Virus record (IMG/VR): IMGVR_UViG_3300035505_000652 | Source: an uncultured virus (IMG/VR IMGVR_UViG_3300035505_000652) | Lineage: Duplodnaviria > Heunggongvirae > Uroviricota > Caudoviricetes | Length of the DNA: 64,000 nucleotides | Reading direction: 5' to 3' (one strand) | In this document: in pieces, positions 3,612-62,011 of the stretch | Layout: each line of letters opens with the position of its first letter | Position numbering within the stretch: position 1 is the stretch's first letter | Translations under genes and position numbers: made by a program | Notes under the pieces: model-generated | What the model saw: only the letters and a program-made list of their open reading frames with translations | Database searches by the model: none | Told to the model about the DNA's origin: nothing

Positions 3612-4565
3612 TTAAAACATTTTTAGATTTTTAGAATAATTCAACCCATTAAATCCATCAATTAATATGCCGTTAATAAATGACATTTGACGGACTGCAT
3701 TACTGATATCCACTTTTTGGGATTTATAATGGGTTACAAGAAGCCTTCCATAATTGTATAAATCTGCATTGTAAAACAAACCCCTCAAAGATTCAATATA
3801 ATCAAAGGCTTCCACATCTCCAAGGATTGATTTAAGGGAAACCTTGCAAGAATCAAGAATCCTTTTATCCCCTGTCAATTCCCTGAATATTATTGTATCC
3901 ACGCCCATATCCATATAAAATCTTACAAATTCCAAAATCTTGTCAATGTTGTCAACATACCCCTTAATCAGGTTGCAGCTTATAACTACATTTGCATTGT
4001 TTGCTTTAAAAAATCTTACAATCTCTTCAATTTTTTGGTTGGATATATTGTGGCCTTTGAATATATCATTATTCTCATCTTCATCAATACAATTTCTTGA
4101 AATTTGTATGTTGTTTGTAAACCCATAATCAACCATGTATTGGCATAATGGCTTGCCTTTAAATTCCTCCAATAAATTATAGCCGTTTGTCAATACGCTT
4201 TTGCAAGGCATATTGTATTTATTGCATAGTTCCATGGTCTTAATTAAACGGTATGGATTGAGGGTTGGCTCTCCCCCTGTAATGACCGCCTCCATTTTCT
4301 TCCCTTTTAATTCTTTCAAGCATTTTTCCAATGTTGCCAAATATCCCTTGTTGTCAATATCACAATATGCATTATCTTTGTTAATGCAAAATTCGCAATC
4401 ATTTTGGCAGATGTTTGTAACGAAGATATTTAAGCTGCATGGCTGGGTTATGCCAATCCTTTGATTGAATATCTTTACATCCCTTATGTCTATAATTCCC
4501 AGATTATGTTTTTCCATTGTTGGACTTTCCAATTTGCTAAATTTTAGTATGCTCATTCCTACCAC
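3612..4565 (-). CDS. radical SAM protein
   Basis: CQNDCEFC (CxxxCxxC), ITGGEP, TNG motifs. Confidence 0.9.
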   Translation of the reverse strand: MVGMSILKFSKLESPTMEKHNLGIIDIRDVKIFNQRIGITQPCSLNIFVTNICQNDCEFCINKDNAYCDIDNKGYLATLEKCLKELKGKKMEAVITGGEPTLNPYRLIKTMELCNKYNMPCKSVLTNGYNLLEEFKGKPLCQYMVDYGFTNNIQISRNCIDEDENNDIFKGHNISNQKIEEIVRFFKANNANVVISCNLIKGYVDNIDKILEFVRFYMDMGVDTIIFRELTGDKRILDSCKVSLKSILGDVEAFDYIESLRGLFYNADLYNYGRLLVTHYKSQKVDISNAVRQMSFINGILIDGFNGLNYSKNLKMF

Positions 4566-7714: not shown

Positions 7715-7981
7715 TTACCAGAGCAAGAATTCAAATTCCACTTTGCCATTACAAATATCCACTTGTTGCCCATTAGAAAGGATGCGAGACTTATTGACCA
7801 AAATAGTTTCCCCTTCAAACTCAGGTACTAATTGAACAATATCTTTATCCTCTGCCACTGGAATAACTCCATAGCACTCATAATCTTCACCGCCAAATTC
7901 ATTATTCCCTACTGGGATTCCTACGCGGAAATTAATTTGTCCAATTTTGATATCTTCCTTCTTAATTCTTATATATGTCAT
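7715..7981 (-). CDS. hypothetical protein
   Basis: AAGGAG RBS before ATG at 7981; terminator-like hairpin downstream. Confidence 0.65.
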   Translation of the reverse strand: MTYIRIKKEDIKIGQINFRVGIPVGNNEFGGEDYECYGVIPVAEDKDIVQLVPEFEGETILVNKSRILSNGQQVDICNGKVEFEFLLW

Positions 7982-8177
7982 ATTTCTCTCCTTGCCTTCG
8001 CCATGGTTGACATCCATGCTCCTGTCGATTCAGGTTTACTATGTATTAAAATACTTCTATAATATACTCACCTTTGTATTTTATATAAGTTATTCCAAAT
8101 TATTCCAAGAATTTACAATTTTTTTTACCCTTTATCAATTTTTTGCCAAGCCTAGATGCCTCCCCTTATCCATTAAA

Positions 8178-8202
8178 AAATATTCCCATCAAGGGAATAT
8201 TT
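8178..8202. repeat. palindrome family C (AATATTCYC-N3-5-GRGAATATT), first of 5 copies
   Basis: further copies at 25009, 30968, 38198, 58451. Confidence 0.75.
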
Positions 8203-8875
8203 CTATTAAAATAAAAAATTCTCCAAACTTTGTTTATACCCCATATCATTCTCCAAAGTTTTTTATTTCCATAGTGGAATAATAAAAGAGAAAATATAAA
8301 ACCTCCAGCGTTAATAAACCTTTATTTATTTTTTGATTATTTTCATTATCATTATTATTGTTACTATTATCCTCATCATTATTATCTTTTTCATTTTCAC
8401 TCAATATACTTCTCCCATAAAAAGGCAAACCCTTTATACAATTATAATACTTCCTTATTTAAAGAAAGTTTTAAGTATAGTTAAAGGATTATTTGACTTG
8501 ATGGGAGAAGGATAAGAAACATGATTTAATATATAAATTAAAGAATAAATCCACAAGGAATGTGGATTTATGAAAAGGAGTATTGGAGGGATTGGGATAT
8601 ATTGATTTTGTTGCGTTCTCCATGTAGATAATGATACAAGGGAAAACCTACAAGAAGATTGCATATTTAAACAAACATTGAATATTGCAAACTTCACAAA
8701 TCATGGAATGGATTAAATTCATTAATAAGTTTTCCATAATAATTAAAACCTTCCCAGCATATAATATAATAAAAATACAATCCAAGAAACCTTTGCAAGT
8801 TGTAAGTTTTCTTGGAATTATATATTAAAAATTGAATAAGAAGCAATTGTTTTTAAGAAAGAGAGGTAATTTTGT

Positions 8876-10315
8876 TTGGCAAAAAACAAAAAGAAAAAAC
8901 AAAACATTTTAGTTAGTTTTGTTGATGAACCTGCTTCTGAAGGAGTTACAGGCTCATTGGTTTACGTTGAAACTCCCAATCATAAAATCTTATTGGATGC
9001 TGGATTTTATCAAAGCAATGATACCAAAGTGGATTATGACATAAATAATAGAAACTATAAGGGCTTTAAAGTCAAGCAAATAGACACTATTATATTATCC
9101 CATAACCATGGAGACCATATCTTCCTTGCACCTGTCTTATATAAGAAGGGCTGCAATGCTACTACATATGTTCCAGCAAAATCATCGAAAATACTTCAAG
9201 CCATGTTGACTGATTGCGCATATATAAATGAAAGAGACATTGAAATGTTAAACAAAAGGCTTGAAAAAAGCTACCAACCATTGTTCGACAATGATGATAT
9301 AGATAGGTTTATGAACCATGTCGTGGAGTTGCCTGTAAAACAAAAAATCAAAATTGATGATGAACTTACAATTCAATTTATATATAGCGGACATTTGACT
9401 AATGGATGTCAAATCGAATTATATGTGACGACAAACAATAGAACTCAAAAGATTTTATATACTGGGGACCTTGGCAATAAGTTCATCCCCCAACCATTTA
9501 CAGAAATCTTGGAATATGTTGAGAAGGCAAACCTTGTAATAGCAGAAAGCACCTATGCAGGAAGAAAAGATTTAAAGACAACCATGAAGGAAAGACAAGC
9601 AGACTTGAATAAGTTGAAAAAGCTTGTATTGGAGCAGGTTGTTGAAAAGCAGGGAAGGCTGGTTATTCCAGTATTCGCACAAGCCCGCGCCCAGACATTG
9701 GTATTCCTATTATGGAAGTTGTTTGGAAAGGATAAAAACTTCAAGACAAAAATCTATGTGGATTCTCCATTAGCTTGCAAAGTATTTGAAATATATCTTG
9801 AAATATTGGAAGGTCCAGACAAAGCGGTTTTTGAAGAAATGCTTACTTGGGAAAACCTTGTATTTGTAAAAGACAGCGATATGAGCAAAGCCCTTGTGTC
9901 ATCAAAAGAACCTTGCGTTGTTTTAAGCAGTTCTGGTATGTGCAACAATGGACGTGTAAAGCATCATATTAAAAGCATTATAAATGATGAAAATGCTACA
10001 ATTCTTTTTGTCGGCTATGCAGGAGAGGGAACGCTTGCAGACAATATTAAAAAGAATGAAACCAAGATTGTTATAGATGGCGAGGAATATTTAAGGAAGT
10101 GCAATTGGGATATGCTTACCTCTTTAAGCTCCCATATTACTTATTTTGGAATGACTGAATATTATGGAAGCATCAATTGCAACAAGCTTGTCCTTCATCA
10201 TGGCGATAAAGAAGGGCAATACCAATTGAAAAAAGACCTTAATGAAATCTATACCCAAAAATGCAGGACTACAAATGTAATCATTGCAAACAAAGATTTG
10301 AAACTTGAAATGTAA
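8876..10315 (+). CDS. MBL-fold metallo-hydrolase, beta-CASP (Ysh1-like) nuclease
   Basis: VTGS, LLDAG, SHNHGDH, GH, YTGDLG, ESTY, SSSGM, SSH, LHHG motifs. Confidence 0.9.
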   Translation: MAKNKKKKQNILVSFVDEPASEGVTGSLVYVETPNHKILLDAGFYQSNDTKVDYDINNRNYKGFKVKQIDTIILSHNHGDHIFLAPVLYKKGCNATTYVPAKSSKILQAMLTDCAYINERDIEMLNKRLEKSYQPLFDNDDIDRFMNHVVELPVKQKIKIDDELTIQFIYSGHLTNGCQIELYVTTNNRTQKILYTGDLGNKFIPQPFTEILEYVEKANLVIAESTYAGRKDLKTTMKERQADLNKLKKLVLEQVVEKQGRLVIPVFAQARAQTLVFLLWKLFGKDKNFKTKIYVDSPLACKVFEIYLEILEGPDKAVFEEMLTWENLVFVKDSDMSKALVSSKEPCVVLSSSGMCNNGRVKHHIKSIINDENATILFVGYAGEGTLADNIKKNETKIVIDGEEYLRKCNWDMLTSLSSHITYFGMTEYYGSINCNKLVLHHGDKEGQYQLKKDLNEIYTQKCRTTNVIIANKDLKLEM

Positions 10316-11874: not shown

Positions 11875-12549
11875 ATGGAAAAAACAACAATAAAAATCCA
11901 TTGGAAAGAAGAAAACGTCACCGATAAGAGAGTATTTTATAAGGGTGACGTCGTGAAATACATAGATAAGGAGGGGTCTGAAACACTTGGAGTTATAGTA
12001 AGCAATAATTTATGCTTATTCCATTCCAAGGTATTTCAAGTTATACCAATAGACGACCCCTCCAAAACCAACATCCAAGATGAGGTCAAAAATGAAGACC
12101 TGATATCTCGGTCTTGGATTGTTGAATTTGTTGGCAGGGTTGACCGAGGAACCCTACGGAGGCTTGACAATGCCATAGTCAGGCATCATGAAATTAAAGG
12201 CATGGGCGAATACCAAATAGGAGATGTATATATGGCAAACATCCCAGAATACGAAGATAGTAGTATTCAAAAAGGTTTTCGCCCAGTTATAGTTGTTAGC
12301 GGTGAAGAGAATGAGGAGGAAAACTTCCATGTCTTACCGTTGACAACGAAAGACAAAAAGAAAATGCGTACTCATGTGAAAGTATCGGCTTCCGATACTT
12401 TCATGGAAAGAGATAGCATCATCATGGCTGAGTCTGAAATGACATTGCCTAAAATGAACCTAATCAAAAAGATTGGGACGTTTGATGAAGCTATACAGGG
12501 GCTGGTGTTGAATGCGATAAAAGTTCAGCATCAAATAAGCATTTGTTGA
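11875..12549 (+). CDS. tandem PemK/MazF-fold protein
   Basis: two repeats: KGDVV..GVIVSNN..QVIPI and GDVYMA..SIQKGFRPVIVVS..VLPLTT..HV. Confidence 0.7.
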   Translation: MEKTTIKIHWKEENVTDKRVFYKGDVVKYIDKEGSETLGVIVSNNLCLFHSKVFQVIPIDDPSKTNIQDEVKNEDLISRSWIVEFVGRVDRGTLRRLDNAIVRHHEIKGMGEYQIGDVYMANIPEYEDSSIQKGFRPVIVVSGEENEEENFHVLPLTTKDKKKMRTHVKVSASDTFMERDSIIMAESEMTLPKMNLIKKIGTFDEAIQGLVLNAIKVQHQISIC

Positions 12550-20784: not shown

Positions 20785-21376
20785 TTTTTTATATATTATA
20801 TGTTTTAAAATTCAATATATATTTCCTTAAAAAAAATTATAGCACAAATCTATAAAAATTTCAATACAAAGCAATAAGAAACATAAAGAAAAACAACAAT
20901 TGTAAAGATAATAAAGGCTTAGAAATTTTGTTTATGGTTTTAACCTTTTCCCCTCCTTTATTATTCCTCTTTTTATTTCCCTTAATGGAATATGATAAAG
21001 CCTAAGATTTTTGGGTTAATAGATAAATTCACATAGATGTGAATTTATGGGTTATATAAAAAGAGAGGTTTTGTATATTTTAATAAATAGCATAGCAAGG
21101 TTTAATGCAGATAAAGTATTGGAAATTGGTTGGATGATTAAATACAAAAGAAATTATTTAATACAAAACAATTTCTTTTATTGTAGTTCTTTCCACATCA
21201 TCTTAAAGTTCAATCATGACCATGCATATGAGACAGTGGTTTTCCAATAATTTGCCATATTGTATAATAAATGCGGTTGGATTACTTTCTTTATTGGAAA
21301 TAAGGCTTTATTTCAAGGGTTGTTTTAGGGAGCAGCAAAATTTTTTTTAATCATGCAAATTTTTTAAATTTTCTTA

Positions 21377-21405
21377 TTGACAATTGCATAATATAGATGT
21401 ATAAT
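21377..21405 (+). promoter_or_regulatory. consensus promoter for the leader and tRNA operon
   Basis: TTGACA-17bp-TATAAT. Confidence 0.85.
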
Positions 21406-21474
21406 AAAGAAAATTAAAGATTGCAAGGCAATCAAACATTAAATTAAAAATATAAGGAAAGGAGAAAATTAAAA

Positions 21475-21600
21475 ATGAGTACAATGATGACTAACACATT
21501 AGAGCTTAAAAAGTCAGCCCCCATTAAACCATTCGCGTGGAAACGAGTATGGTCTGTTTGTGTTGGTCAAAGTCAAAATGGAAATTTCCTGCATGGATAA
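21475..21600 (+). CDS. 41-aa putative leader peptide
   Basis: AAAGGAG RBS; MSTMMTNTLELKKSAPIKPFAWKRVWSVCVGQSQNGNFLHG*. Confidence 0.65.
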   Translation: MSTMMTNTLELKKSAPIKPFAWKRVWSVCVGQSQNGNFLHG

Positions 21601-21657
21601 TGTATTCCATGTAAAACTCATTTGTATATTTTCTTCGCTATTGAAATATATAAATTC

Positions 21658-21723
21658 AAAGCCATTTACTTTAACCAACAATCAAATTAGATTGTAGGTG
21701 TAGGTAAGTGGCTTTTTATATTT
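21658..21723 (+). terminator. long hairpin with U tract before the first tRNA (attenuator candidate)
   Basis: AAAGCCATTTACT...GGTAAGTGGCTTT then ttatattt. Confidence 0.65.
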
Positions 21724-21732
21724 CAAATTTAT

Positions 21733-21805
21733 GGGCGCATAGTTTAATTGGTAGAACACAGAACTTTTAATTCTGATGATGGGGGTTCAAGTCCCCCTGC
21801 ACCCA
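21733..21805 (+). tRNA. tRNA-Lys(UUU)
   Basis: cloverleaf; anticodon arm CAGAA-CTTTTAA-TTCTG; GGTTCAAGT T-loop. Confidence 0.9.
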
Positions 21806-21832
21806 CTCCATACAATTTGTATGGCTTGATAA

Positions 21833-21904
21833 TGGGAATGAGGTGTAAAGGTCTGCACACGTCGCTTGGGACGATGGGGAGGGGTTCGAGTCCCACATTT
21901 CCAA
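21833..21904 (+). tRNA. tRNA-Pro(UGG), atypical
   Basis: anticodon arm CGTCG-CTTGGGA-CGATG; irregular acceptor and T stems. Confidence 0.8.
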
Positions 21905-21935
21905 TCATCCAAGGAATATCATCTTGGATTTGCAT

Positions 21936-22009
21936 GGATACATAGTTTAACTGGTAGAACACAGAACTTTTAATTCTGATGATGGAGGGTTCAAATCCCC
22001 CTGTATCCA
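21936..22009 (+). tRNA. tRNA-Lys(UUU)
   Basis: GGATACA/TGTATCC acceptor stem; CTTTTAA loop. Confidence 0.9.
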
Positions 22010-22032
22010 TTCATATTTATATATGAGTTTAT

Positions 22033-22104
22033 GGGACTATGGTGTAACGGCAAGCATAGAGGTCTCCAAAACCTTTGATTTGGGTTCGAATCCCAATGGT
22101 CCTG
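22033..22104 (+). tRNA. tRNA-Trp(CCA)
   Basis: GAGGT-CTCCAAA-ACCTT arm; G73. Confidence 0.9.
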
Positions 22105-22128
22105 CTTGTTTTTTTAAAACATAAATAA

Positions 22129-22200
22129 TGGGAATGAGGTGTAAAGGTCTGCACACGTCGTTTGGGACGATGGGGAGGGGTTCAAGTCCCACATTTCCAA
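22129..22200 (+). tRNA. tRNA-Pro(UGG), atypical, second copy
   Basis: two substitutions relative to 21833-21904. Confidence 0.8.
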
Positions 22201-22231
22201 TCATCCAAGGAATATCGTCTTGGATTTGCAT

Positions 22232-22304
22232 GGGCGTATAGTTTAATTGGTAAAATACGAAACTCTTAATTTTGAAGATGGGGGTTCAAGTCCCCCTGCG
22301 CCTA
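22232..22304 (+). tRNA. tRNA-Lys(CUU)
   Basis: CGAAA-CTCTTAA-TTTTG arm. Confidence 0.88.
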
Positions 22305-22335
22305 TTTTAATTTTTAAACAAAGGAGGGGAGATTT

Positions 22336-22740
22336 ATGAAGATTACTTACAATTTTGGAATATTGAAAAACAAATTAATAGGCATTGAACTTAATGGGGA
22401 GATTTGGTTTAATGTTTTAAAGAATTTCAAGCAGAATGGGGAGAATATATTTTTGAAGTTTGAAAATTCCACATTGCAAATCAATTGCCAGCATTTCCTT
22501 CACATGAAGGTTGTGGAAAAGAATAATGTTGTTTGTTTTGTGGAATCAAATAATGACAAGTTAATAAATGGAATGTTTTTGTACTACATGTACAACACCC
22601 AGGGAATACCTTATGATATTTCCAAGGATTTGTTGGAGGAGAAGGGTTTTGAGGTTGATGAAGAAGGGTTTAACATTTTATACAAGACAAACCAAGACCT
22701 GTCAAAAGGAACATTCTTGAATAAAGATGCTTTCTCCTAA
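22336..22740 (+). CDS. small protein ending in an alanyl-tRNA-synthetase-like helical segment
   Basis: MYNTQGIPYDISKDLLEEKGFEVDEEGF resembles the AlaRS LYDTYGFPxDLT...GxxVDxxGF segment. Confidence 0.65.
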   Translation: MKITYNFGILKNKLIGIELNGEIWFNVLKNFKQNGENIFLKFENSTLQINCQHFLHMKVVEKNNVVCFVESNNDKLINGMFLYYMYNTQGIPYDISKDLLEEKGFEVDEEGFNILYKTNQDLSKGTFLNKDAFS

Positions 22741-22818
22741 AACCAAAAATAATGACATTATGCAATTATTAAAAATTTTTTGGAAAATGTTTGCATATGA
22801 TATATTAAAGAATTTAAA

Positions 22819-22924
22819 GCAGGCTTCGCTTGTGTGAAACCAATAATGGTTCCTTCTAAAATTTCAAATAATACTTAAAAAAAATGAAAAGCGTTAAGCT
22901 TTTTTACCATTATGAATATCCTGC
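22819..22924 (+). ncRNA. unannotated structured RNA, copy 1
   Basis: GCAGG/CCTGC and ATAATGGT/ACCATTAT stems enclosing TCCTTCTAAAA...AATAATAC and a small hairpin. Confidence 0.6.
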
Positions 22925-22949
22925 AAAATTCATTTAGTAGCAAGTGTTC

Positions 22950-23021
22950 GTCTCCATAGTTTAAGGGAAAGAACAATGCACTACGAATGCATAGATTTGG
23001 GTTCGAATCCCAATGGAGATG
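22950..23021 (+). tRNA. tRNA-Arg(ACG)
   Basis: ATGCA-CTACGAA-TGCAT arm. Confidence 0.9.
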
Positions 23022-23055
23022 CTTTAAAAAAAATGTAAGATAATGCAAAAAACAG

Positions 23056-23084
23056 TTGACAACCTAATTAAATTATGCTATACT
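23056..23084 (+). promoter_or_regulatory. sigma-A promoter with extended -10
   Basis: TTGACA-17bp-TATACT with TG extension. Confidence 0.8.
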
Positions 23085-23107
23085 AAATAAGTAATCAATC
23101 AAAACAA

Positions 23108-23191
23108 GCAGGTGTGGTGGAATAGGCAGACACGGCAGACTCAAAATCTGCAGCCTTCCAAGGCGTGTGGGTTCAAGTCCCACCACCTGCA
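23108..23191 (+). tRNA. tRNA-Leu(CAA)
   Basis: GCAGA-CTCAAAA-TCTGC arm; long variable arm. Confidence 0.92.
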
Positions 23192-23198
23192 CTAAATT

Positions 23199-23291: not shown

Positions 23292-23460
23292 TATCTGCTT
23301 TGCAGAATGCCAACATAACGAAATTATTAGCAGTTTTAATATCCTAATTTAAAAATTCAAAAATGTTCTTTAGATTCATTAAAAAAAGCTATGAATAATA
23401 TTCATAGCTTTTATTTTTTTACTCAATTATATTATTTAATCCTTTTTAGGTTTTTAGTCC

Positions 23461-25655: not shown

Positions 25656-27230
25656 ATGGCTGAAACATTAACAAAACAAGAGTTGGCAAGCAAGATATGG
25701 GAAACTGCCAACAAACTTCGTTCAAAAATCAAAGCTAATGAGTATAAGGATTATATTCTTGGCTTTATGTTCTACAAATTCCTATCAGATACAGAGGAGC
25801 AATTCTTAGAAAAGAATGATGCTACCAAGGAAGACATCAAGGATGCGGATGAGGATACAATCAAGATGATTCAAGATGAACTTGGTTATTTTATCGCATC
25901 TGATGATTTGTTTTCTTCTTGGATTGAGAAGGGTATTAATCTTGTAACATCAGATGTATCAGATGCCCTTATTAGGTTTAATTCACAAATCAAAAATGAA
26001 TATAAGAAGGTATATGAAAACATCTTCTCAACATTGTCTGGTGGGCTTTCAAAGTTTGGAGAAAACCTTGGAACTAGAAACAAGGCTGTAAGGGATATGG
26101 TTGCAATGACAGGGGAAATCCCATCAACTTCTGATGAGTATGATGTTATGGGATATATATATGAGTTCTTGATTTTTAAATTTGCAACAGCTGCAAAGGA
26201 TGACGGTGCATTCTATACGCCTCATGAGGTAAGCCTTTTGATTTCCTTGATTTGTGCAGAGGCTTGCAAGGATAAAGAACATATCCAAGTATATGACCCT
26301 ACATGTGGTTCTGCAGGGCTTCTTTTGACCATTGGTGATGCAATGTCCAAGTATGTTGACAAGGATGAAATCGAGTATTTTGGACAGGAGAAGATTACAG
26401 AGACATATAACCTTTCACGTATGAATTTGGTTATGAAGGGTTGCAAACCCGCACAAATTTCAATAAGAAATGGCGACACTCTTGAAGATGATTGGCCTTA
26501 TTTTGATGAGAATACAGAGTATAACCCAGTCTTTGTTGATGTAGTTGTTTCAAATCCACCCTACTCATTGAATTGGGAAGCAGATGGAAAAGAAAATGAT
26601 GCCAGATTTAGAGGTTATGGAGTAGCTCCAAAAAGCAAGGCTGACTATGCTTTCTTATTACATAGCTTATACCATTTAAAACCAACCGGCGTTATGGGTA
26701 TCGTTCTTCCTCATGGAGTTTTATTCAGAGGAGGCACAGAAGGTGCTATTAGAAAGCAATTGATAGAAAACAACCAAATCGAGACCATTATTGGGTTGCC
26801 AGCAAATTTGTTTTACAATACATCCATTCCAACCCTTATAATGATATTGCGCAAGAATAGAACCGCAACATATATCAATGACAAGGGTGAAGAGGTTGTT
26901 GATGATAGAATTCTTTTCGTGGATGCAAGCAAGGAGTTTAAGTCTGAAAAGAAACAAAATATTTTAACCCAAGAAAATATAGATAAAATCTTCAAAGCAG
27001 TTCAGGATAGAACTGATGTTGATAAGTTCGCACATCTTGCTACAAAGCAGGAGGTTATTGACAATGACTATAACCTCAATATTCCAAGATATGTCGATAC
27101 TTTTGAAAAGGAAGAAGAGATTGATTTGGATGATGTAAGAAATTCAATCAATAAAGTAAGAGAAGACAAACAATCTGTTTTAAATGACATTAATAAAATG
27201 ATGGCAGAATTAGGATTGGCAGATATTTAA
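25656..27230 (+). CDS. hsdM: type I R-M methyltransferase subunit
   Basis: FYTP, YDPTCGSAGLL, NPPY, LPHGVLFRGG, YNLNIPRYV. Confidence 0.95.
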   Translation: MAETLTKQELASKIWETANKLRSKIKANEYKDYILGFMFYKFLSDTEEQFLEKNDATKEDIKDADEDTIKMIQDELGYFIASDDLFSSWIEKGINLVTSDVSDALIRFNSQIKNEYKKVYENIFSTLSGGLSKFGENLGTRNKAVRDMVAMTGEIPSTSDEYDVMGYIYEFLIFKFATAAKDDGAFYTPHEVSLLISLICAEACKDKEHIQVYDPTCGSAGLLLTIGDAMSKYVDKDEIEYFGQEKITETYNLSRMNLVMKGCKPAQISIRNGDTLEDDWPYFDENTEYNPVFVDVVVSNPPYSLNWEADGKENDARFRGYGVAPKSKADYAFLLHSLYHLKPTGVMGIVLPHGVLFRGGTEGAIRKQLIENNQIETIIGLPANLFYNTSIPTLIMILRKNRTATYINDKGEEVVDDRILFVDASKEFKSEKKQNILTQENIDKIFKAVQDRTDVDKFAHLATKQEVIDNDYNLNIPRYVDTFEKEEEIDLDDVRNSINKVREDKQSVLNDINKMMAELGLADI

Positions 27231-27249
27231 TGCTTTAATTTCCACTATG

Positions 27250-27385
27250 CATAACCTACTCCCCTATGCTTTCAGCATAGGGGTATCTCCATTTAATGGG
27301 TTATTACATCAAGTTGGAACAAATCCCAGCTGCAATGGATGGATTATTTTAAAGAAACATATGCTTCAAAAATGTTTTGTTAGAA
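27250..27385 (+). pseudogene. probable hsdS 3' remnant preceded by an IS200/IS605-end-like hairpin
   Basis: LKKHMLQK resembles HsdS C-termini; CCCCTATGCT-ttc-AGCATAGGGG hairpin at 27261-27283. Confidence 0.4.
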
Positions 27386-27519
27386 CAAATAACTTTGTTT
27401 TAGGGTTTATGAATAACAATTTATTTATAAGTTCTAAAAACAAAAAATATAATAAATCAGTATATTTGTAATTAAAACATCATTAACATAGACCATTAAA
27501 CAAAAAGGAGTGACAAAAT

Positions 27520-30500
27520 TTGATTGGAAATTACACAGGACAAATGGGGGAGGCAAACTTTGAAAAAGATTTTATTGAAATGCTTGTTTCCCAAGGATGG
27601 GATGGAAATATCATAAAAAATCCCTACCACAAAACTTTAGAGGAAAATTTACGAAATATCATTAATGAAAACAATATTGACAAGCTTGGCTCGTCAGACC
27701 AATTGACCGATGCAGAGTTTGCCCAAATTATGGATAAAATAAATTCAGACTGCACTACGCCAGTTGCAGCCAATGTATTTATCAACAGCAAGCAGGTTAC
27801 AATTAAGTCTGAAATCAATAGGCAAAAATACAAGGTTGGTGATGAAATTTATCTTGACATCTTCGACCCAGTTGAGGTTGCCGGCGGAAAATCAAGATAC
27901 CAGATTGCAGAACAAATTTATTTCAATACAGACCCCAAGTACAATAATAGACGAGGGGATTTAATGCTTTTGATTAATGGATTGCCTGTAATCCATATAG
28001 AGCTTAAGGCAAGCGGACACAATCTTGAAGAAGGTACAATGCAGATACAAAAATATATGAATGAAGGAGTGTTCAAGGGATTGTTTTCTTTGATACAGGT
28101 GTTTTTTGTCGCCACTCCAGAAGACATCATTTATTTTGCAAATTCATACCCGACGCTCAATCCAACTTTCATGTTCCATTGGGGGGATAATAAAAACAAC
28201 CAGATACATAATTGGCAGCAATTGATTAAAGGACCAAGCCAAATCCTTTCAATTCCAGAAGCCCATCAGCTTGTTGGATATTATACAAGTGCAAGCATAG
28301 AAAAAGATTCCAACGGCTGTATTGAAAACATCAATAATGGGATTTTAATGGTTGCCCGTTCATACCAGATATATGCCATTAGGAATATTATGAAAAGGGT
28401 TAAGCTCCAAAGATGGGGAACACATACCCCATTAGGAGGATATGTATGGGGCACTACTGGATGCGGCAAGACTTTTACAAGCTACAAGTCTGGACAGCTT
28501 ATAACAGACAAGAATTTTGCAGACAAAGTCGTTTTTGTAGTTGACAGGGTTGAGTTATCCGACCAATCCTATAAGGAATATAATTCATTTGCAAGGGATG
28601 GAGAACCAATTGCAAAATCAAAATCCACTTATGATTTGTTTAAATTGTTGTCTGATGACAAACATAGGCTTGTGATTACATCCATTCAAAAACTTTCAAG
28701 GGTTAATGAGGAAAAATCCAAGTATGTTAATAAGGTGGATATAGACAAAATTAACAAGAAAAGAATAGTCTTTGTTATAGATGAAGCCCATCGCAGTCAA
28801 TTTGGGGAAATGCATGAGCATATCAAAAGCACGTTTACAACGGCTTTGTTTATTGGTTTTACAGGCACTCCTATTTTTAGTGAGAATGATAAGGCAGAAG
28901 GCATGACTTCTGAAATTACCTTTGGAGACTGCCTTGCAGTTTATTCAATTGCAAGCGGTATAAGGGATAAAAATGTCCTTGGGTTCAGCCCCACAATGGT
29001 TAGAACTTTTGAGGATAAAACATTGAAAGATGCCATTGCTTGTGATAGGGCAAAAGTTTCATCAAAAGATGAAGCCAAAAAAGACCCAGCAAAGTGGAAG
29101 ATTTATAAAGATACTTTGAATTATGACATGAAGACTATTGAAAAAATGCTGCCGCCAAACCAATATAATTGCCCCCAACATAGGGCGGCGGTAGTTAAAG
29201 ATATTGAAAGCGGTTGGGAAGTCCTCTCCAACGAGGGCGGGGCAATTAGATTCCATGCATTGCTTGCAACAAATTCAATTGCAGAAGCCATTGAATACTA
29301 TAGGCTGCTCAAAGTTTCAAAGACGCATGTTAAAGTAACAGCCCTTTTTGACCCCAATACAAATGGAGACAGTCAAGCTGTCATCAACAAAGAAAAAGCC
29401 ATTGTTGAAATTATTGATGATTACAATAAAATGTTTGGAACAGGAAACATTATTAATAGGGAGGCAGACCCATCCCTTAAATCATTCAAATCAGACATTA
29501 CGGCAAGACTCGCCCATAAAGGACCATACAAGCATATATCAGAAGCAGATATGATTGATATTGTTATTGTTGTAGACCAATTATTAACAGGGTTTGACAG
29601 CAAATATATCAATACATTGTATCTTGACAAAGTGCTTGAAACAGACAATCTTATACAAGCCATTTCAAGAACAAATAGGGTATTGGATTTTGATGAAAAG
29701 CCTTGGGGTATATTCAAGTGTTATAGACAGCCTTATACCATGGAGGAAAACCTTACCAATGCACTTCGCCTTTATTGCGAGGGCGGGGAAAACAGCGGGG
29801 CTATTGTAAAAAGCCTTAATGAGAATATAGATTTGGCAAACCAATTATATAAGGATATTGAAAAAATCTTTAATGATGCCAATATACAAAACTTCATGTG
29901 TCTGCCTAAATTGGATGCTGATTGTCAAAAATTTAAAGCATTGTTTAAAACCCTTGCCCAGACAATCAATGGCATGAAATTGCAAGGCTTGCATTGGAAA
30001 AAAGATGATGATGAACATGTCTTAAAGCTTGATGTATGCAAAAAATGGGTTGATGGAACCACAAGAATTTATGATATTTTATACATGAGGTATAAAGATT
30101 TAATGCCAATAAGCAGCAATACTCCAAACCAACATACTGGAAAGCTTGGGTATAGCATAATGGCAAGCCTTTCGGAAATGGAAAAAGCCAAGATTGATGC
30201 AGATTACCTTGAAGAACACTTCAAACAAATTATACCAATACTTATTGGGGATTTTGAAGAAGTTGAAAAGGATATGGCAATTGAAGAGTTCCAATCCCAG
30301 CTTGCTACATTGTCAATAACCCAACAAGAATTTGCAAATATTATCATTGAAGATATAAAGGATGGCAAACTTGATGTTGGAAACAAAACATTAAGGGAGC
30401 TTATCGCAGAATATCAGACAAATGCTGAAAACCAAATGGTTCTTGACTTTGCCGACAAATATGGCTTGAATGTAGCCTTGTTGCATAAAATATTCCATAT

Positions 30501-30636
30501 GAACGGCAATCATGACATGGAAATAAGCAAATTGTTGGAAACTTGTGACAAGGAAGTAGTTGAAAAAGCTTTTGATTGCAAATGGTTTGCAGCAAGGGTT
30601 AAACTAAATAAAGAGATAAAAGACTTCATAATGTAA
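27520..30636 (+). CDS. hsdR: type I restriction endonuclease subunit R
   Basis: GDLMLLINGLPVIHIELK, TGCGKT, DEAHRS, FTGTP, LLTGFD, QAISRTNR. Confidence 0.95.
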   Translation: MIGNYTGQMGEANFEKDFIEMLVSQGWDGNIIKNPYHKTLEENLRNIINENNIDKLGSSDQLTDAEFAQIMDKINSDCTTPVAANVFINSKQVTIKSEINRQKYKVGDEIYLDIFDPVEVAGGKSRYQIAEQIYFNTDPKYNNRRGDLMLLINGLPVIHIELKASGHNLEEGTMQIQKYMNEGVFKGLFSLIQVFFVATPEDIIYFANSYPTLNPTFMFHWGDNKNNQIHNWQQLIKGPSQILSIPEAHQLVGYYTSASIEKDSNGCIENINNGILMVARSYQIYAIRNIMKRVKLQRWGTHTPLGGYVWGTTGCGKTFTSYKSGQLITDKNFADKVVFVVDRVELSDQSYKEYNSFARDGEPIAKSKSTYDLFKLLSDDKHRLVITSIQKLSRVNEEKSKYVNKVDIDKINKKRIVFVIDEAHRSQFGEMHEHIKSTFTTALFIGFTGTPIFSENDKAEGMTSEITFGDCLAVYSIASGIRDKNVLGFSPTMVRTFEDKTLKDAIACDRAKVSSKDEAKKDPAKWKIYKDTLNYDMKTIEKMLPPNQYNCPQHRAAVVKDIESGWEVLSNEGGAIRFHALLATNSIAEAIEYYRLLKVSKTHVKVTALFDPNTNGDSQAVINKEKAIVEIIDDYNKMFGTGNIINREADPSLKSFKSDITARLAHKGPYKHISEADMIDIVIVVDQLLTGFDSKYINTLYLDKVLETDNLIQAISRTNRVLDFDEKPWGIFKCYRQPYTMEENLTNALRLYCEGGENSGAIVKSLNENIDLANQLYKDIEKIFNDANIQNFMCLPKLDADCQKFKALFKTLAQTINGMKLQGLHWKKDDDEHVLKLDVCKKWVDGTTRIYDILYMRYKDLMPISSNTPNQHTGKLGYSIMASLSEMEKAKIDADYLEEHFKQIIPILIGDFEEVEKDMAIEEFQSQLATLSITQQEFANIIIEDIKDGKLDVGNKTLRELIAEYQTNAENQMVLDFADKYGLNVALLHKIFHMNGNHDMEISKLLETCDKEVVEKAFDCKWFAARVKLNKEIKDFIM

Positions 30637-30749
30637 AATTTAAAAATAAAAAGAGATGCCTTGATTAAAAAAGCATCTCTTTTGTTTTTTATAGAATGCC
30701 CAACTTGAATTAAATCCATTGTTTTAATAAGAGAAAAAAATGGAGTTGT

Positions 30750-30990
30750 ATTAGAAATACAATTTAAACCAAACTGGTAGTTTTTGTTTTCATGCAATCC
30801 AAGGTATATATATGCTTGTTTTGGAAATATTACTTAAATCAAGGTGGTAGTTTTAGGTTTTTATATAAACCATATTCACTTTACATCCTTTATATCTCTT
30901 AAATCTCATAATACACTTTGAAGGTTAAGAGGATTAATTTTTAAGATAATAATTTTTTATTTAATGGAATATTCTCTTCGAGAATATTGA
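30750..30990 (+). repeat. spacer with two family-B units and palindrome C
   Basis: B cores at 30763 and 30833; palindrome at 30968-30988. Confidence 0.8.
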
Positions 30991-31084
30991 AGACATTTTA
31001 AGATAAAAAATAAATTGTCTAGCAAACAAGAAAACTCTTACAAGCAAATGTCATAAGAGTTTTTCTATAATAAATTTTTAGATA

Positions 31085-31318
31085 TTAATTATTGTATTCT
31101 TTAGGGTAATTCCTTACAAGATACAAACCAGTACACCCTCCAATACCGCCTCCATTGGCATTAAGAGTGCAAGCTATATTGTCACTATCATAAACCCTAT
31201 ATCCTTGTTTATGATTTCTGGAAAAATTCTTCCCATTATCCAACCATAGCTTTTCAGACACGCCTCCTATAAATACAAGTTCATTTTCACTTGGGGAGGC
31301 TTTTAAGCCTCCCTGATA
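31085..31318 (-). CDS. -1 frame extension of the DNA methyltransferase (TRD-like module, no start codon of its own)
   Basis: YQGGLKASPSENELVFIGG...KQGYRVYDSDNIACTLNANGGGIGGCTGLYLV...; opens at slippery A AAT TTT. Confidence 0.7.
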   Translation of the reverse strand, partial: YQGGLKASPSENELVFIGGVSEKLWLDNGKNFSRNHKQGYRVYDSDNIACTLNANGGGIGGCTGLYLVRNYPKEYNN

Positions 31319-33318
31319 AAATTTGCATCTTGGTTTTCTTCACCCAAAGACATTTCATGGGTTTCCTTCCAATCATAAAACATATCCAAGCCTTTCTCAA
31401 AAGCTCCAATTCCGCTAAACAATGAAATGAGTTTCAAATCATCAAAAAGCTCTGGCATAGCCTTGTACAATTCCTTGTAAACCTCATAAAGAACATTTGT
31501 TACGATTGAGTTACCGGCTTGCTTGTAAGCTTGGGTTGTGCTTAATGAAACAGCATGTTTTACGCCTTGCTCGTCTTTTTCATATTTAAGCTTGAAGCCT
31601 TTCTCCAATAATTCTTTTTCCTCTTCTGGGGTGTAATATTTTGCCTTGGCAAAATCTTCATCAGAAAAGCCCATAAGTCTGAATGATTCCAATGGGGTAA
31701 GTTTTCTAATTGCAAACCATTGAGGGTCGAATATGTAATTATCCTTTTGAACTGTCGTCAATGTATTGCAGATGCCGTCTTTTCTTGGTGAAAGCTCCCT
31801 CATGTTGCCAATTTTCTCATCAATGAGACCAGCCTCATAATCTTTTCTTATTTTCTTCCCATACTCTGTTCTTTCATATTTCAAGGCACATGGCTCAAGG
31901 ATGTAATTGTCTTTTTGAACTGTTGTCAATGTATTTGTAGTGCCGTTTACATTGATTTCTATTCTTTGCTGGGTTGGAAGCCCTGCAGTCCTTGCACTTG
32001 GATTTTCTGGGTTTCTTCCCCTGCTTGCACAGCATATTGGAAGTTCAATAGCTTCAATAATATGCTTATCCCCGCAAGCATCTATTGTTCTTAATGTTCC
32101 ACACATGTTATCCCTATATAAAACCATGCCGTCAGTCCTTGTTTCACAGGCAATCATCGCACATGGATACATTGAAGTTGCATTTTCAGGAAGCTCCACT
32201 TCCTTTTCCTTCTCCTTCTTGGCATCCTCTATTGGGATAAATTCCATGATGGATTTATCAAATGTATCATTTTCTATATTAAGGAGTTTCTTTAAATCAA
32301 GCCAAATAGAAGCTCTTGGAATTACGAATGTTTCATCCCTCTTGAACCATTCACTTGCCTCTTCTTTGCTTACATTTAACTTCTCAGCTATTTCGCTTAT
32401 GGATAACTTGCTTTCCTCCCTTTTCATTGTAAGGAGTTCTTTTAAAGCACTTAAATTAACGCTGTATTTTCTAATGCCATCCTCCCCTACATCAACTTTG
32501 TTGACTTCATTTAAAGATGGAATATCCTTTAAAAGTTCAAGCATATTTTCATCCAATTGATGGATGTTCTCCTTGGTTTCATTATCAATAAGGCTTATAT
32601 TTCCAAGATTGTTTATGCTTTGGTATAATTTCTTCTTGACTGTTTCATCCAAGTTGTTTAAAAGTTGTGTAGTCTTTTCAGGCTTCAAATAATAGCTTTC
32701 ATCAACATTCTTCTGCAATAAATCCTTCAATCTTATACCATTGTCAAAAGGTTCTGGAAACTTGAATTTTCCATTGTCAATATCCTTCCTTATAGCTACA
32801 AGGATAATCCTTTCCCTATTTTGAGGGATGCCGTAATGTTTTGCATTCAATACTTGGTAATAGACATTGTATCCATAATCTTTAAGCTCTTCAACAAACA
32901 AATTAAAGGTAGCTTTAAATTCAGAACCAAGAAGGTTTTTAACATTTTCGTATACCGCAAACTTAGGCATCTTGTCATGCAAAACCCTTAAATATTCAAC
33001 AATCAATGAAGAACGTGTCTTTTCAAGGTTTGTTGAATGGCAATGCGGGCATTCGCTTCTTGTCTTGTAATTTGCAGTCAAAGGATTATATTGGTATCCG
33101 CAATCCTGACAAGTCCACATAGCTCCAGCCTTCTTGCCTGCAGAACTATAGTCCTGGCAAGGGCTTCCGCCTACCAGCATATCAAAATCTGGAAGCTCGC
33201 TTGTGTTGACTTTCATAATGTCTCCGAGGTTCAAATCTTCAGATACTCCATGAATCCTTGAATAGCTCTTGGATGCGGCATTATCAATTTCACAATAATT
33301 AATTAACTTATATGACAT
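31303..33318 (-). CDS. dcm: DNA (cytosine-5) methyltransferase, circularly permuted
   Basis: EID, GSPCQD, ENV, PQNRER, RKLTPLE, QAGNSI, then motif I LISLFSGIGAFE at the C-terminus. Confidence 0.92.
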   Translation of the reverse strand: MSYKLINYCEIDNAASKSYSRIHGVSEDLNLGDIMKVNTSELPDFDMLVGGSPCQDYSSAGKKAGAMWTCQDCGYQYNPLTANYKTRSECPHCHSTNLEKTRSSLIVEYLRVLHDKMPKFAVYENVKNLLGSEFKATFNLFVEELKDYGYNVYYQVLNAKHYGIPQNRERIILVAIRKDIDNGKFKFPEPFDNGIRLKDLLQKNVDESYYLKPEKTTQLLNNLDETVKKKLYQSINNLGNISLIDNETKENIHQLDENMLELLKDIPSLNEVNKVDVGEDGIRKYSVNLSALKELLTMKREESKLSISEIAEKLNVSKEEASEWFKRDETFVIPRASIWLDLKKLLNIENDTFDKSIMEFIPIEDAKKEKEKEVELPENATSMYPCAMIACETRTDGMVLYRDNMCGTLRTIDACGDKHIIEAIELPICCASRGRNPENPSARTAGLPTQQRIEINVNGTTNTLTTVQKDNYILEPCALKYERTEYGKKIRKDYEAGLIDEKIGNMRELSPRKDGICNTLTTVQKDNYIFDPQWFAIRKLTPLESFRLMGFSDEDFAKAKYYTPEEEKELLEKGFKLKYEKDEQGVKHAVSLSTTQAYKQAGNSIVTNVLYEVYKELYKAMPELFDDLKLISLFSGIGAFEKGLDMFYDWKETHEMSLGEENQDANFIREA

Positions 33319-34291: not shown

Positions 34292-35134
34292 TTAAACATC
34301 TTCATCAATGATTACAGTATCATTTATTAAATTTGCATTTTTGGGCTTTGGATACATCCATGTATGGGGTTTCTTTGGAACTTCGCTTGGGGTTTTCTTC
34401 TTTTTATCTACAACCAATTTGTTGGATTTGTCTTCATTGGATGCATCTTTTAAATTTTGATTGGAAGGGGCGACTTGGATTTCTTGTTTTCTTTGCTTGA
34501 CAAGTTCATTCAAATTGTTTGTAAGGATTTCCTCGATTTGGAATTCAAATCCTTTATAAAAGGCAATGCCTTCCTTCTGCAAAGCTGTCCTATTCCTAAA
34601 ACCTTCCCTTTCGTTTGCAAGCTCCTCATATTCCTTAAAAGATACTCCTTTGCTGATACTCATGCCCAATTCTCTTTTTAAATAATAGTTAAGGAGGACG
34701 TTTGTGTTGGAGTGTTTGCGGTAAATTAAATAGGAATATACATTATCTTTGTATAACGAAAACGCCCTTCCAGCAAACATTACAAAACCCTTCGTGTAGT
34801 ATTGGTGGAATATGTAGGAAAATTCTTGGGCTATGCATGCAGTTGCTTCCTGCGCATAGTTGTGTTTCAAAGTCTTGATATAGGCAGCGGAATCCAACAC
34901 TATTATATTGACTTCATCGGTCGCCATATATATTAAGAAATTTGCGGACATTCTTTTACAAGCCATTTTTAATGCATATGTAAAAGTGCCTTCGGAATCA
35001 TCCAATAAATTAATTTGTTTGTTGCCTGTGATGTGCCTTCCATCCAAGCGTACAACAAACGGTCTATTCCTATTCAATTTTATATTGTATTTGCTTTCAA
35101 TTTTGTGGAAAAATTCTATTCGGTTCAAGTCCAT
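34292..35134 (-). CDS. tRNA(His) guanylyltransferase Thg1-family protein
   Basis: VVRLDGR, YMATDEVNI, FAGRAF, YLIYR motifs. Confidence 0.8.
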   Translation of the reverse strand: MDLNRIEFFHKIESKYNIKLNRNRPFVVRLDGRHITGNKQINLLDDSEGTFTYALKMACKRMSANFLIYMATDEVNIIVLDSAAYIKTLKHNYAQEATACIAQEFSYIFHQYYTKGFVMFAGRAFSLYKDNVYSYLIYRKHSNTNVLLNYYLKRELGMSISKGVSFKEYEELANEREGFRNRTALQKEGIAFYKGFEFQIEEILTNNLNELVKQRKQEIQVAPSNQNLKDASNEDKSNKLVVDKKKKTPSEVPKKPHTWMYPKPKNANLINDTVIIDEDV

Positions 35135-60004: not shown

Positions 60005-60928
60005 TTATCTAATCAAGCCGACACTTTTGGCTTTGTTAAGCCATTCTGGATATTCTCCAAGAAGCCTTCCATACAAGTCATTGTCAGACAATCTTGTTAA
60101 ATCGTTTACAGAGAAGAAGTTTGCATTGTCGATATATCTTCCCTCCATGGTATCCAATTGCTTCAAGTATTTGAAGTTTGAGCTTCCAATGCCTACAAAC
60201 TGCCAAAAGATAGGGTATCTTGAAATGTCTGTAATAACCCTTGTCGTTTGGGCTTTATCTGAATTGTCGCCATCCGTAATAAATAATACAAGTGTTGGGA
60301 TTGCAGCAGGCTCTTCAATAATGTATTTTTTGTAAATATCCTGCATTACTGGAGCATACTCTGTCCCGCCCATGTAAAATCTTTGCGTCAATTGGTTGTT
60401 GTTGATGTAATTGTAAAAATTGTTTAATGAAATGTCTGGTATCCTATGGAAGTCATTTGAGAACACCCATGCCTCCATTACACCGTTATCATCAAATTGC
60501 ATTGCGACAGGAAGAAGCCTTTCAATTACCTGTTGTACTTTGCCGCTTGCATAGAGTCCAGACATGGAACCGCTTATATCCATAACCATGCATACCCTTG
60601 AAATAAGCCCGTTCAACTCTTTCTTTTCCAAGCAAAGGCTTTGGATTGACTGCTTGCTTAAATTCAATTGTTGGATTCTCTGCTCCTTATCAAGGTTTAA
60701 TGATTGGATGTTGCTTTGATTAAGGGTATTGTTATACCCGTTTTGGTTTGGATAATTGTTATACCCATTTTGGTTTGGATAGTTATTGTATCCATTATTG
60801 TAGTTATTTTGGTTTGGATAATTGTTATATCCATTTTGGTTTGGATAGCCATTATAGTTGTTTCCCATATTGTTGGGATATTGCTGTTGACCAGTCAAGC
60901 CATTTAAAAGTTTATCAAGAAATCCCAT
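60005..60928 (-). CDS. vWA-domain (TerF-like) protein with N-terminal YPNQNGYNN repeats
   Basis: MIDAS DISGSM, GGTEYAP, FITDG, FWQFVGIG, DNANFF. Confidence 0.85.
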   Translation of the reverse strand: MGFLDKLLNGLTGQQQYPNNMGNNYNGYPNQNGYNNYPNQNNYNNGYNNYPNQNGYNNYPNQNGYNNTLNQSNIQSLNLDKEQRIQQLNLSKQSIQSLCLEKKELNGLISRVCMVMDISGSMSGLYASGKVQQVIERLLPVAMQFDDNGVMEAWVFSNDFHRIPDISLNNFYNYINNNQLTQRFYMGGTEYAPVMQDIYKKYIIEEPAAIPTLVLFITDGDNSDKAQTTRVITDISRYPIFWQFVGIGSSNFKYLKQLDTMEGRYIDNANFFSVNDLTRLSDNDLYGRLLGEYPEWLNKAKSVGLIR

Positions 60929-60929
60929 A

Positions 60930-61865: not shown

Positions 61866-62011
61866 TATCTATTTTTCCCTCCAATCTTGGTTTAATTATA
61901 ACAAAAATTTAAAAATTTAAAAAGTCCATATTTGTATTATATGCAAATATTATTTTTAATAGTTATTATTTTTGGTTGAAAAATATTTTTAAAATGATAT
62001 AATAAATTATA

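Follow-up and report, generated by a model that had tools for sequence, protein, structure and literature searches.

A putative codon-matched leader-peptide attenuator upstream of a spare tRNA gene cluster

How are spare tRNA genes controlled when they lie directly behind what looks like a complete small transcription unit? This question is raised by a 64,000-nt stretch of DNA (hereafter the window), the uncultured virus record IMGVR_UViG_3300035505_000652 of IMG/VR, in which a promoter, a 41-codon open reading frame (ORF) and a terminator-like stem precede a cluster of tRNA genes. An initial annotation, made from the sequence alone, had proposed that the transcription of these tRNA genes is attenuated by a leader peptide whose codons match them. 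Our analysis supports this proposal in silico, mainly through relatives of the locus, and we consider it probable that positions 21377–21732 form a ribosome-mediated (leader-peptide) transcription attenuator gating the cluster. The mechanisms of differential tRNA gene regulation are described as largely unknown in PMC8421152.

Anatomy of the leader and of the tRNA array

The leader region contains the following elements, in which MFE denotes the minimum free energy fold.

21377–21405, + strand: sigma-70-type promoter TTGACA-17-TATAAT, 12/12 consensus matches
21419–21433, + strand: small hairpin of the 5′ untranslated region, GAUUGC-AAG-GCAAUC, MFE structure
21460–21464, + strand: Shine-Dalgarno sequence (SD) AGGAG, read from the sequence, 10 nt ahead of the ATG at 21475
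21475–21600, + strand: leader ORF, 41 codons, translated as MSTMMTNTLELKKSAPIKPFAWKRVWSVCVGQSQNGNFLHG
21485–21498, + strand: region 1, leader codons 4–8, predicted to pair with region 2 in ribosome-free RNA
21508–21552, + strand: regulatory codon cluster, codons 12–26, AAA AAG TCA GCC CCC ATT AAA CCA TTC GCG TGG AAA CGA GTA TGG
21556–21582, + strand: region 2, codons 28–36, 5′ strand of the predicted antiterminator, pairing with 21661–21686
21590–21613, + strand: hairpin across the stop codon TAA (21598–21600), MFE fold
21616–21636, + strand: segment complementary to the SD and start codon (21461–21480), −18.1 kcal/mol
21658–21723, + strand: intrinsic-terminator-like hairpin 21658–21715 (23 bp) and U-rich tract 21713–21723, −30.1 kcal/mol, pairing probability 0.97

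The perfect promoter, the ribosome-binding site, the 41-codon ORF and the several hairpins with a long terminator-like stem that had been noticed initially were all recovered. The terminator hairpin is followed by the tract UUUUUAUAUUU, and its end lies 10 nt from the first tRNA. The initial annotation had named a separate tRNA promoter as a possible refutation; none was found between the terminator and the tRNAs, the promoter at 21377–21405 being the only candidate with at least 9/12 matches on the + strand of 21405–22499. The leader RNA is far more stable than its shuffled versions (z −8.7; 0/100 shuffles as stable). A 37-aa version of the leader peptide was called as a gene in one assembly; no homologue beyond this call was found among called proteins, a result of little weight since small ORFs are rarely called.

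The tRNA genes and associated features are as follows.

21733–21806, + strand: tRNA-Lys (UUU), ARAGORN, Rfam 71 bits
21833–21904, + strand: tRNA-Pro (UGG), ARAGORN, Rfam 36.4 bits
21935–22010, + strand: second tRNA-Lys (UUU), ARAGORN and Rfam
22033–22105, + strand: tRNA-Trp (CCA), ARAGORN and Rfam
22130–22199, + strand: second tRNA-Pro (UGG from loop reading), Rfam 35.8 bits, missed by ARAGORN
22231–22305, + strand: tRNA-Lys (CUU), ARAGORN and Rfam
22336–22740, + strand: 134-aa protein with an AlaRS-like helical C-terminal half, marker of the tRNA array family
22950–23022, + strand: tRNA-Arg (ACG), ARAGORN and Rfam; the codon CGA occurs in the leader
23056–23084, + strand: second promoter, 11/12
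23108–23192, + strand: tRNA-Leu (CAA), behind the second promoter; the codon TTG is absent from the leader
23384–23412, + strand: terminator closing the tRNA unit

The tRNA content given in the initial annotation, Lys(UUU) twice, Lys(CUU), Pro(UGG) twice, Trp and Arg(ACG), was confirmed: ARAGORN found seven tRNAs including Leu-CAA, and Rfam added the second Pro. The window thus carries 8 tRNA genes in 1.46 kb. A Pro-Lys tRNA unit of 160 nt is duplicated with 90% identity, and the second tRNA-Pro belongs to this duplication.

Leader codons match the downstream tRNAs

The Lys, Pro, Trp and Arg codons noted initially are present in the leader as listed, but they span 15 codons (12–26) and not 13. 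Eight of these 15 are strictly cognate to tRNAs of the array under strict wobble rules (Lys-UUU, Lys-CUU, Pro-UGG, Trp-CCA and Arg-ACG), and nine if U34 reads a whole family box. Against random codons drawn from the long ORFs of the window, this gives p 0.006 (strict) and 0.0015 (relaxed). A score of 8 was reached by 32/14519 windows of 15 codons in real long ORFs, by 18/840 small stop-to-stop ORFs of the window and by 62/5000 dinucleotide shuffles of the leader ORF. The leader holds a cognate codon for five of the six distinct anticodons; only Leu-CAA, whose gene has a promoter of its own, is unrepresented. Taken alone, the codon cluster of the window is suggestive and not decisive.

Relatives of the locus were found through the 134-aa marker protein. 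Nine relatives (P0002–P0009 among them) with 59–73% identity were found in a protein collection, and five more distant ones (30–43% identity) on the metagenome contigs L001 to L005 (coordinates L001 878–1294, L003 1225–1638, L004 5066–5437 and L005 6004–6447). All five metagenome loci are tRNA arrays. No relatives were found in viral or genome contigs with the protein or its alignment, and DNA patterns of the window tRNA-Pro and tRNA-Lys had no matches in viral, genome or metagenome contigs. A tblastn search of phages and plasmids matched only the AlaRS-like half of the protein; four of its phage matches (L006–L009), which hold no tRNAs, were dropped.

L001 and L002 represent one element, with 100% identity across 1289 nt, and L003 is cut at the array start. 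In the window, L002, L004 and L005, where the start of the array is on the contig, it is preceded in every case (4/4) by a promoter (10–12 of 12 matches), an ORF of 39–48 codons with SD and ATG, and a canonical terminator. The distance from terminator to first tRNA is 10–18 nt in three of these four arrays; the terminator of L002 precedes a small helix-turn-helix (HTH) gene, which is followed by the tRNAs. The four leaders have no significant mutual similarity, either as peptides or as DNA, and each of them, even with its terminator removed, folds more stably than dinucleotide-shuffled versions (z −2.7 to −4.8, 0/100). Rfam matched only tRNAs in the L002–L005 loci.

The arrays of L004 and L005 hold 45 and 18 tRNAs, respectively. 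The L005 leader (MLKLTNMFNFDMVINPVHVAADMDRHFGVDKNSKIARRNPVLLL) precedes an array with Asn, Asp, Val, Phe, Ile, Arg(UCU), Pro, Gly(GCC), Met, Arg(CCU) and His tRNAs, and 13 of its 15 codons are cognate (p 0.003), a score reached by 0/3176 windows in the long ORFs of L005. The match extends to the level of codons, with AGA, AGG and GGC corresponding to Arg-UCU, Arg-CCU and Gly-GCC. The L002 leader (MNTIIRISAPHIAPAKLHAPRRNFISRALQNVCVESLIV) precedes Ala(UGC), Pro(UGG), His and Pro tRNAs and scores 7/15 (p 0.0002); the contigs are short, and the array is possibly longer. When leaders and arrays of this family were swapped, p ranged from 0.06 to 0.88. Two overlapping small Cys-rich ORFs (70 and 60 aa; L001 385–761) lie between the tRNA-Ala and tRNA-Pro of the L001/L002 array; neither Pfam matches nor viral relatives were found for them.

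Phage units and covariation of leader codons with tRNA content

Phage loci were reached through relatives of the L002 HTH gene in viral contigs, with the codon statistic fixed beforehand. Scanning with an alignment of three HTH proteins gave 65 loci, 40 with tRNAs and 25 without, the latter being left out. Also left out of the leader analysis were about 28 loci of the L032 type, and L059 and L078, where the tRNAs are on the other strand. The array directly follows the HTH gene in 10 of the 65 loci. L018 and L020 have an RtcB-like ORF upstream, not a leader, and L052 repeats L033, leaving seven distinct leaders. As leader we took, in each locus, the closest ORF upstream that starts with ATG, has an SD and comprises 30 codons or more.

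A 92-kb viral record with terminal repeats carries two units (L010 and L014), each made of promoter, leader ORF, terminator, HTH gene and tRNA array. An ORF with SD is present in the leaders of L002, L004, L005, L014, L010, L033, L046 and L070, and its length across units stays within 36–48 codons despite sequence turnover. Four of the phage leaders scored as follows.

L033: leader MFNRLYEHYEYEHELLLHEN... (LYEHYEYEHELLLHE, best match); array Glu(UUC), Glu(CUC), His, Tyr, Leu(UAA), Leu(CAA), Leu(UAG); 14/15, p 2e-5
L075 (= L014): leader MLTAIKFCKSSYSCKHSSYFKKNS...; array Lys, Tyr, Phe, Ser(UGA), Ser(GCU), Cys; 13/15, p 2e-5 to 4e-5
L046: array Glu x2, Trp, Gln(CUG), Phe, Tyr; 10/15, p 0.0005
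L070: array Glu x2, Gln(UUG), Gln(CUG), Cys, Trp, Tyr; 10/15, p 0.0004

These scores are rare among 4158 small ORFs: that of L033 is reached by 2 (probably the L033/L052 leader itself), that of L075/L014 by none, that of L046 by 6 and that of L070 by 3. None was reached by any of 3000 shuffles. The Leu codons TTA, TTG and CTG of the L033 leader correspond one to each of its Leu tRNAs (Leu-UAA, Leu-CAA and Leu-UAG). When viral leaders were scored against viral arrays in a matrix, four leaders gave their highest score, or a tied one, with their own array; L039, L019 and L015 did not. Over all informative leaders, those of the window family and of phages, 7/10 match their own array at p<0.01.

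Covariation of leader codons with tRNA content, suggested initially as a test in related elements, was observed between L046 and L070, whose leader ORFs are homologous (~90% identity). Inside the codon cluster, AGT and AGC of L046 are both replaced by TGC in L070, and CGA by CAA; tRNA-Cys and tRNA-Gln(UUG) are present in the L070 array and absent from that of L046. The codon changes hence track the gain of Cys and Gln(UUG) tRNAs.

Several further features of the phage units deserve mention. The gene located between leader terminator and tRNAs encodes a 74-aa XRE-type HTH protein (L002 1599–1823, which is L001 12–236; L010 4001–4225; L014 1389–1613) and occupies the same position in L033, L046, L070, L039 and L019. 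It may provide a second regulatory layer, for example by autorepression of the unit promoter. The L010 leader (3727–3855) fits the L014 array better (10/15, p 0.013) than its own, and the two arrays united better still (13/15, p 0.004), a post hoc comparison; this could reflect cross-sensing or a recent leader duplication. The ORFs upstream of the HTH gene and array in L018 (2003–2437) and L020 (2035–2442) putatively encode the C-terminal part of RtcB, as judged from peptide reading alone; RtcB is co-regulated with the tRNA array of Anabaena (PMC8421152). Finally, in a large group of near-identical phage loci (L032, L034, L041–L045, L047–L051, L055–L058, L060–L068, L071, L072 and L077) the tRNAs, Gln(UUG), Lys(UUU), Met and sometimes Glu, lie about 1.1 kb after the HTH gene and are spaced by 100–250 nt.

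Predicted alternative structures of the leader RNA

In the MFE fold of the window leader, codons 4–8 (21485–21498) pair with 21556–21570, the SD and start codon pair with 21616–21636, and the terminator stands separately. The pairing of the SD and start codon with a segment just past the leader stop codon may limit translation to the first, co-transcriptional ribosome.

Folding of 21540–21730, advised initially as a search for an antiterminator, did reveal one: region 2 (21556–21582) competes for the 5′ arm of the terminator (21661–21686) and is freed when a ribosome is placed on the regulatory codons. The energy of this duplex is −19.0 to −20.7 kcal/mol, compared with −11.4 ± 2.5 for shuffled ORFs, and only 6/1000 shuffles are equally good. 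Duplexes better than those of shuffles were also found in L015 (6/500) and L075 (24/500). With helix energies of −15.8 (1:2), −20.7 (2:3) and −30.1 kcal/mol (3:4), the predicted helices of the window suggest a topology like that of the trp leader. In L002, region 1 is formed by the regulatory Ala, Pro and His codons themselves, which is the classical design (1:2 −19.5, 2:3 −12.5, 3:4 −17.4).

The order of events was modelled by folding the RNA only up to the terminator loop, with everything through the front edge of a stalled ribosome masked. In the window, region 2 then pairs with the terminator arm (22 bp) for each A-site codon up to about 25, and this pairing is gone once the ribosome front is beyond ~21570. 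The regulatory codons 12–26 therefore sit exactly where a stall leaves region 2 free.

At gathering score, neither the window nor L002–L005 matched the T-box covariance model, and no T-box was among the Rfam matches up to E=10 in 21300–21760. Low-scoring Rfam matches in the leader (plant and animal miRNA hairpins, and a greA leader at 17 bits) were attributed to chance.

Proposed mechanism

We propose the following scheme. Transcription would begin at the strong promoter and a ribosome would load onto the 41-codon leader. If the Lys, Pro, Trp and Arg(CGA) codons 12–26 are decoded fast, the ribosome would cover region 2 (codons 28–36), the hairpin 21658–21715 would form and transcription would end 10 nt ahead of the first tRNA. 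If the matching charged tRNAs are scarce, decoding would be slow and the ribosome would stall upstream of region 2, keeping region 1 away from it; region 2 would then pair with the terminator 5′ arm, giving read-through and production of the Lys, Pro and Trp (and possibly Arg) tRNAs. The new tRNAs would restore decoding, closing a negative feedback. The scheme supposes that the ORF is translated, that the switch works in this direction and that ribosome and polymerase are coupled in the Bacillota host; cleavage of tRNAs by nucleases or toxins, or a mismatch in codon usage, are candidate natural triggers.

On a broader claim the evidence leaves us evenly balanced: spare tRNA clusters of gut Bacillota and phages may carry widespread, fast-evolving "codon sampler" leaders containing codons of their own tRNAs, with the array transcribed only when those tRNAs fail.

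Weighing the attenuation model

A number of observations weigh against codon-matched attenuation. Under the stricter nulls the match of the window alone reaches only p 0.012–0.021, and the 15-codon statistic was chosen after viewing the window, L005 and L002. Three of the ten informative leaders do not match their own array: that of L015 (= L010; 7/15, p 0.28–0.45), that of L039, whose array is cut by the contig end (6/15, p 0.29), and that of L019, with two Glu tRNAs only (4/15, p 0.06). The L004 leader, which uses 19/20 amino-acid kinds, is uninformative, since the 45 tRNAs of its array cover 83–89% of codons. In the covarying pair, the L070 leader retains three Phe codons while no Phe tRNA was found in that locus, and L046 has one Cys codon (TGT, outside the cluster) without a Cys tRNA.

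The structural evidence has its own counterweights. When the whole terminator is folded at equilibrium, it wins at every ribosome position (P 0.97–0.98), so that the switch must be kinetic, as in trp. The 1:2 helix of the window is not significant (113/1000). In all nine leaders folded, the partner of the terminator 5′ arm lies within the final third of the ORF for as long as the ribosome front has not gone past it, a result biased by the preference of folding for nearby partners. The duplexes of L005, L004, L002, L033 and L070 are no better than those of shuffles (145–242/1000; 114–152/500), and that of L046 scores 22/500 but is located at codons 11–15, not in the last third. Transcription and translation in Bacillota are often not tightly coupled. 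Contigs from three animal-gut metatranscriptome runs span only 22395–23090 (marker ORF and tRNA-Arg), with no coverage of the leader or the six tRNAs behind it, and are neutral on leader transcription or termination.

The alternative that survives best, although we judge it unlikely, is that the leader senses translation stress in general, as antibiotic-sensing leaders of Bacillota do, any slowing of ribosomes causing read-through and codon identity being secondary. Its architecture would be identical to that of a codon-matched attenuator, and it would accommodate the L004 leader with its 19/20 amino-acid kinds ahead of 45 tRNAs, the three leaders without specific match, and the induction of the Anabaena tRNA array by translation inhibitors (PMC8421152). 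However, such a sensor would need no codon match, yet seven of ten leaders fit the array behind them at p<0.01, most swapped pairs show no such fit, and the codon changes between L046 and L070 track tRNA gain.

We give still less credence to a self-contained micro-protein gene, whose promoter, ORF and terminator would be independent of the tRNAs, these being expressed through leaky read-through or a weak unrecognised promoter and the codon match of the window arising by chance. The great stability of the terminator, the modest significance of the window match under strict nulls (p 0.012–0.021) and a TATATT within the U-tract, about 11 nt ahead of the tRNA, fit this explanation. Against it, there is no −35/−10 pair of at least 9/12 in 21405–22499, the peptide has no homologue among called proteins, and the layout recurs although the peptides are not conserved, with a composition that follows the arrays in 7/10 cases.

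Least probable of all, and in our view very doubtful, is a translation-independent structured leader (riboswitch-like, protein-bound or a processing element serving as RNase III or RNase P entry, or as HTH target in the phage versions) with an incidental ORF: the stability of the leaders (z −8.7 in the window, −3.7 to −5.2 in relatives), the long 21641–21726 stem resembling a substrate of double-strand RNases and the HTH gene between terminator and tRNAs in phage units speak for it, but no Rfam family, T-box included, matches, an SD-ATG ORF of 36–48 codons is kept in every unit despite sequence turnover, and both codon match and covariation are properties of the reading frame.

The marker protein and the genes surrounding the tRNA unit

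The three C-terminal helices of the 134-aa marker protein resemble the AlaRS catalytic fragment (profile E 9e-9 to residues 360–430 of 3htz), and the predicted structure (AF2 pLDDT 90.5) overlays 3hxz with 0.9 Å across 51 residues; its N-terminal beta domain has no clear match. The protein may be an accessory factor of arrays that binds tRNA acceptor stems.

The window, with a G+C content of ~32%, looks chromosomal and Bacillota-like, judging from its genes for FtsH, a class A PBP and a type I restriction-modification (R-M) system and from the nearest FtsH clusters, which are from Bacillota; its host is thus probably a member of Bacillota. PADLOC and NCBIfam detected near the array only the type I R-M system, a C5 methylase and a weak viperin-like radical SAM protein. 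The R-M genes lie directly downstream of the tRNA unit (25656–33318), with HsdM at 25656–27230 and HsdR at 27520–30636; the gap between them holds only a 74-aa ORF at the place expected for HsdS. A 671-aa C5 DNA methylase is encoded beside them within the same interval.

Other genes may be mentioned for their annotation. A 280-aa ORF (34292–35134, − strand), 12 kb from the tRNA cluster and adjoining radical SAM genes, has a weak match to Thg1 (tRNA-His guanylyltransferase; E 9.6e-5, 22.8 bits, below the cut-off of 29.2). A 224-aa protein (11875–12549, + strand) carries a PemK/MazF-like domain in its C-terminal half (residues 116–217) and exceeds the usual length of a stand-alone MazF. TerD-domain, vWA-TerF-like and YceG-domain proteins are encoded at 47535–49841 and 60005–63526 of the window. 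Stress genes of the tellurite-resistance type are thus found near both chromosomal arrays, that of the window and that of L005 (TelA, 7735–9416); in L005, a PTH2-type peptidyl-tRNA hydrolase gene immediately follows TelA.

Significance and comparison with known systems

Phage defence by tRNA cleavage is a current topic. If our model is true, the leader would be a cis-acting sensor of tRNA availability that controls tRNA genes and that may serve as an inducible response to anticodon nucleases and to toxins that cleave tRNAs. It would offer a simple cis-mechanism for tRNA gene control, explain the frequent silence of arrays and link them to homeostasis under tRNA depletion. The content of a leader would then tell, from sequence alone, which tRNAs the element expects to lose, or which are attacked in nature, and such leaders would serve as compact modules with which to gauge how much of a given tRNA is available.

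The classical leader-peptide attenuators are those of the amino-acid operons of E. coli and Salmonella (trpL, hisL, pheL, thrL, leuL and the ilv leaders). With these systems, described in general terms in PMC1183508, our leaders share a short ORF with SD, a cluster of regulatory codons, a set of overlapping helices (1:2, 2:3 and 3:4) of which the terminator is the most stable, and an antiterminator freed, here by prediction, when the ribosome stalls on the regulatory codons. They differ in that the regulated genes are tRNA genes and not biosynthetic enzymes, and in that each leader carries codons for several amino acids at once, a set as broad as that encoded by its array, where the classical leaders have a run for a single one. 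Moreover, it would be the tRNA itself that restores what is sensed, and the hosts are Bacillota and their phages.

The T-box riboswitch of Bacillota, which regulates synthetase and amino-acid genes, recognises tRNA by direct binding and needs no translation. Like it, our model involves sensing the supply of specific charged tRNAs and a choice between terminator and antiterminator; unlike it, the window leader has an ORF and no T-box match. The bmrB leader of the Bacillus subtilis bmrCD genes mediates ribosome-mediated attenuation that responds to ribosome-targeting antibiotics and controls a transporter (PMC4191407). The mechanism, the Bacillota host and the size of the leader ORF are similar, but the codons of bmrB do not match the product of the genes it controls.

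In function, the nearest precedent is the L-array (trn operon) of Anabaena sp. PCC 7120, another supernumerary tRNA array, normally silent and switched on by impaired translation. Its regulation was ascribed to direct repeats that cover the −10 box and start site, together with a hypothetical repressor (PMC8421152); the words leader, attenuat- and terminator have 0 occurrences in the available text of that paper. The Anabaena repeat motif is absent from the leader promoter of the window (21377–21412), and the whole window contains 12 one-mismatch matches against 9.5 expected.

Full-text literature searches, which did not extend to the supplements of PMC8421152 and PMC4758250, gave no description of leader-peptide attenuation of tRNA genes. 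In the available text of PMC4758250, regulatory leaders are not discussed, with 0 occurrences of leader, attenuat- and terminator. The tRNA array units defined there (at least 20 tRNA genes, at least 2 per kb), which are frequent in Firmicutes, resemble our units in their dense same-strand extra tRNA genes and interspersed genes of unknown function; the window agrees with them in density but not in number, with its 8 tRNAs. Set beside these systems, the device described here is a new use of a known mechanism, one that appears widespread in gut phages and Bacillota.

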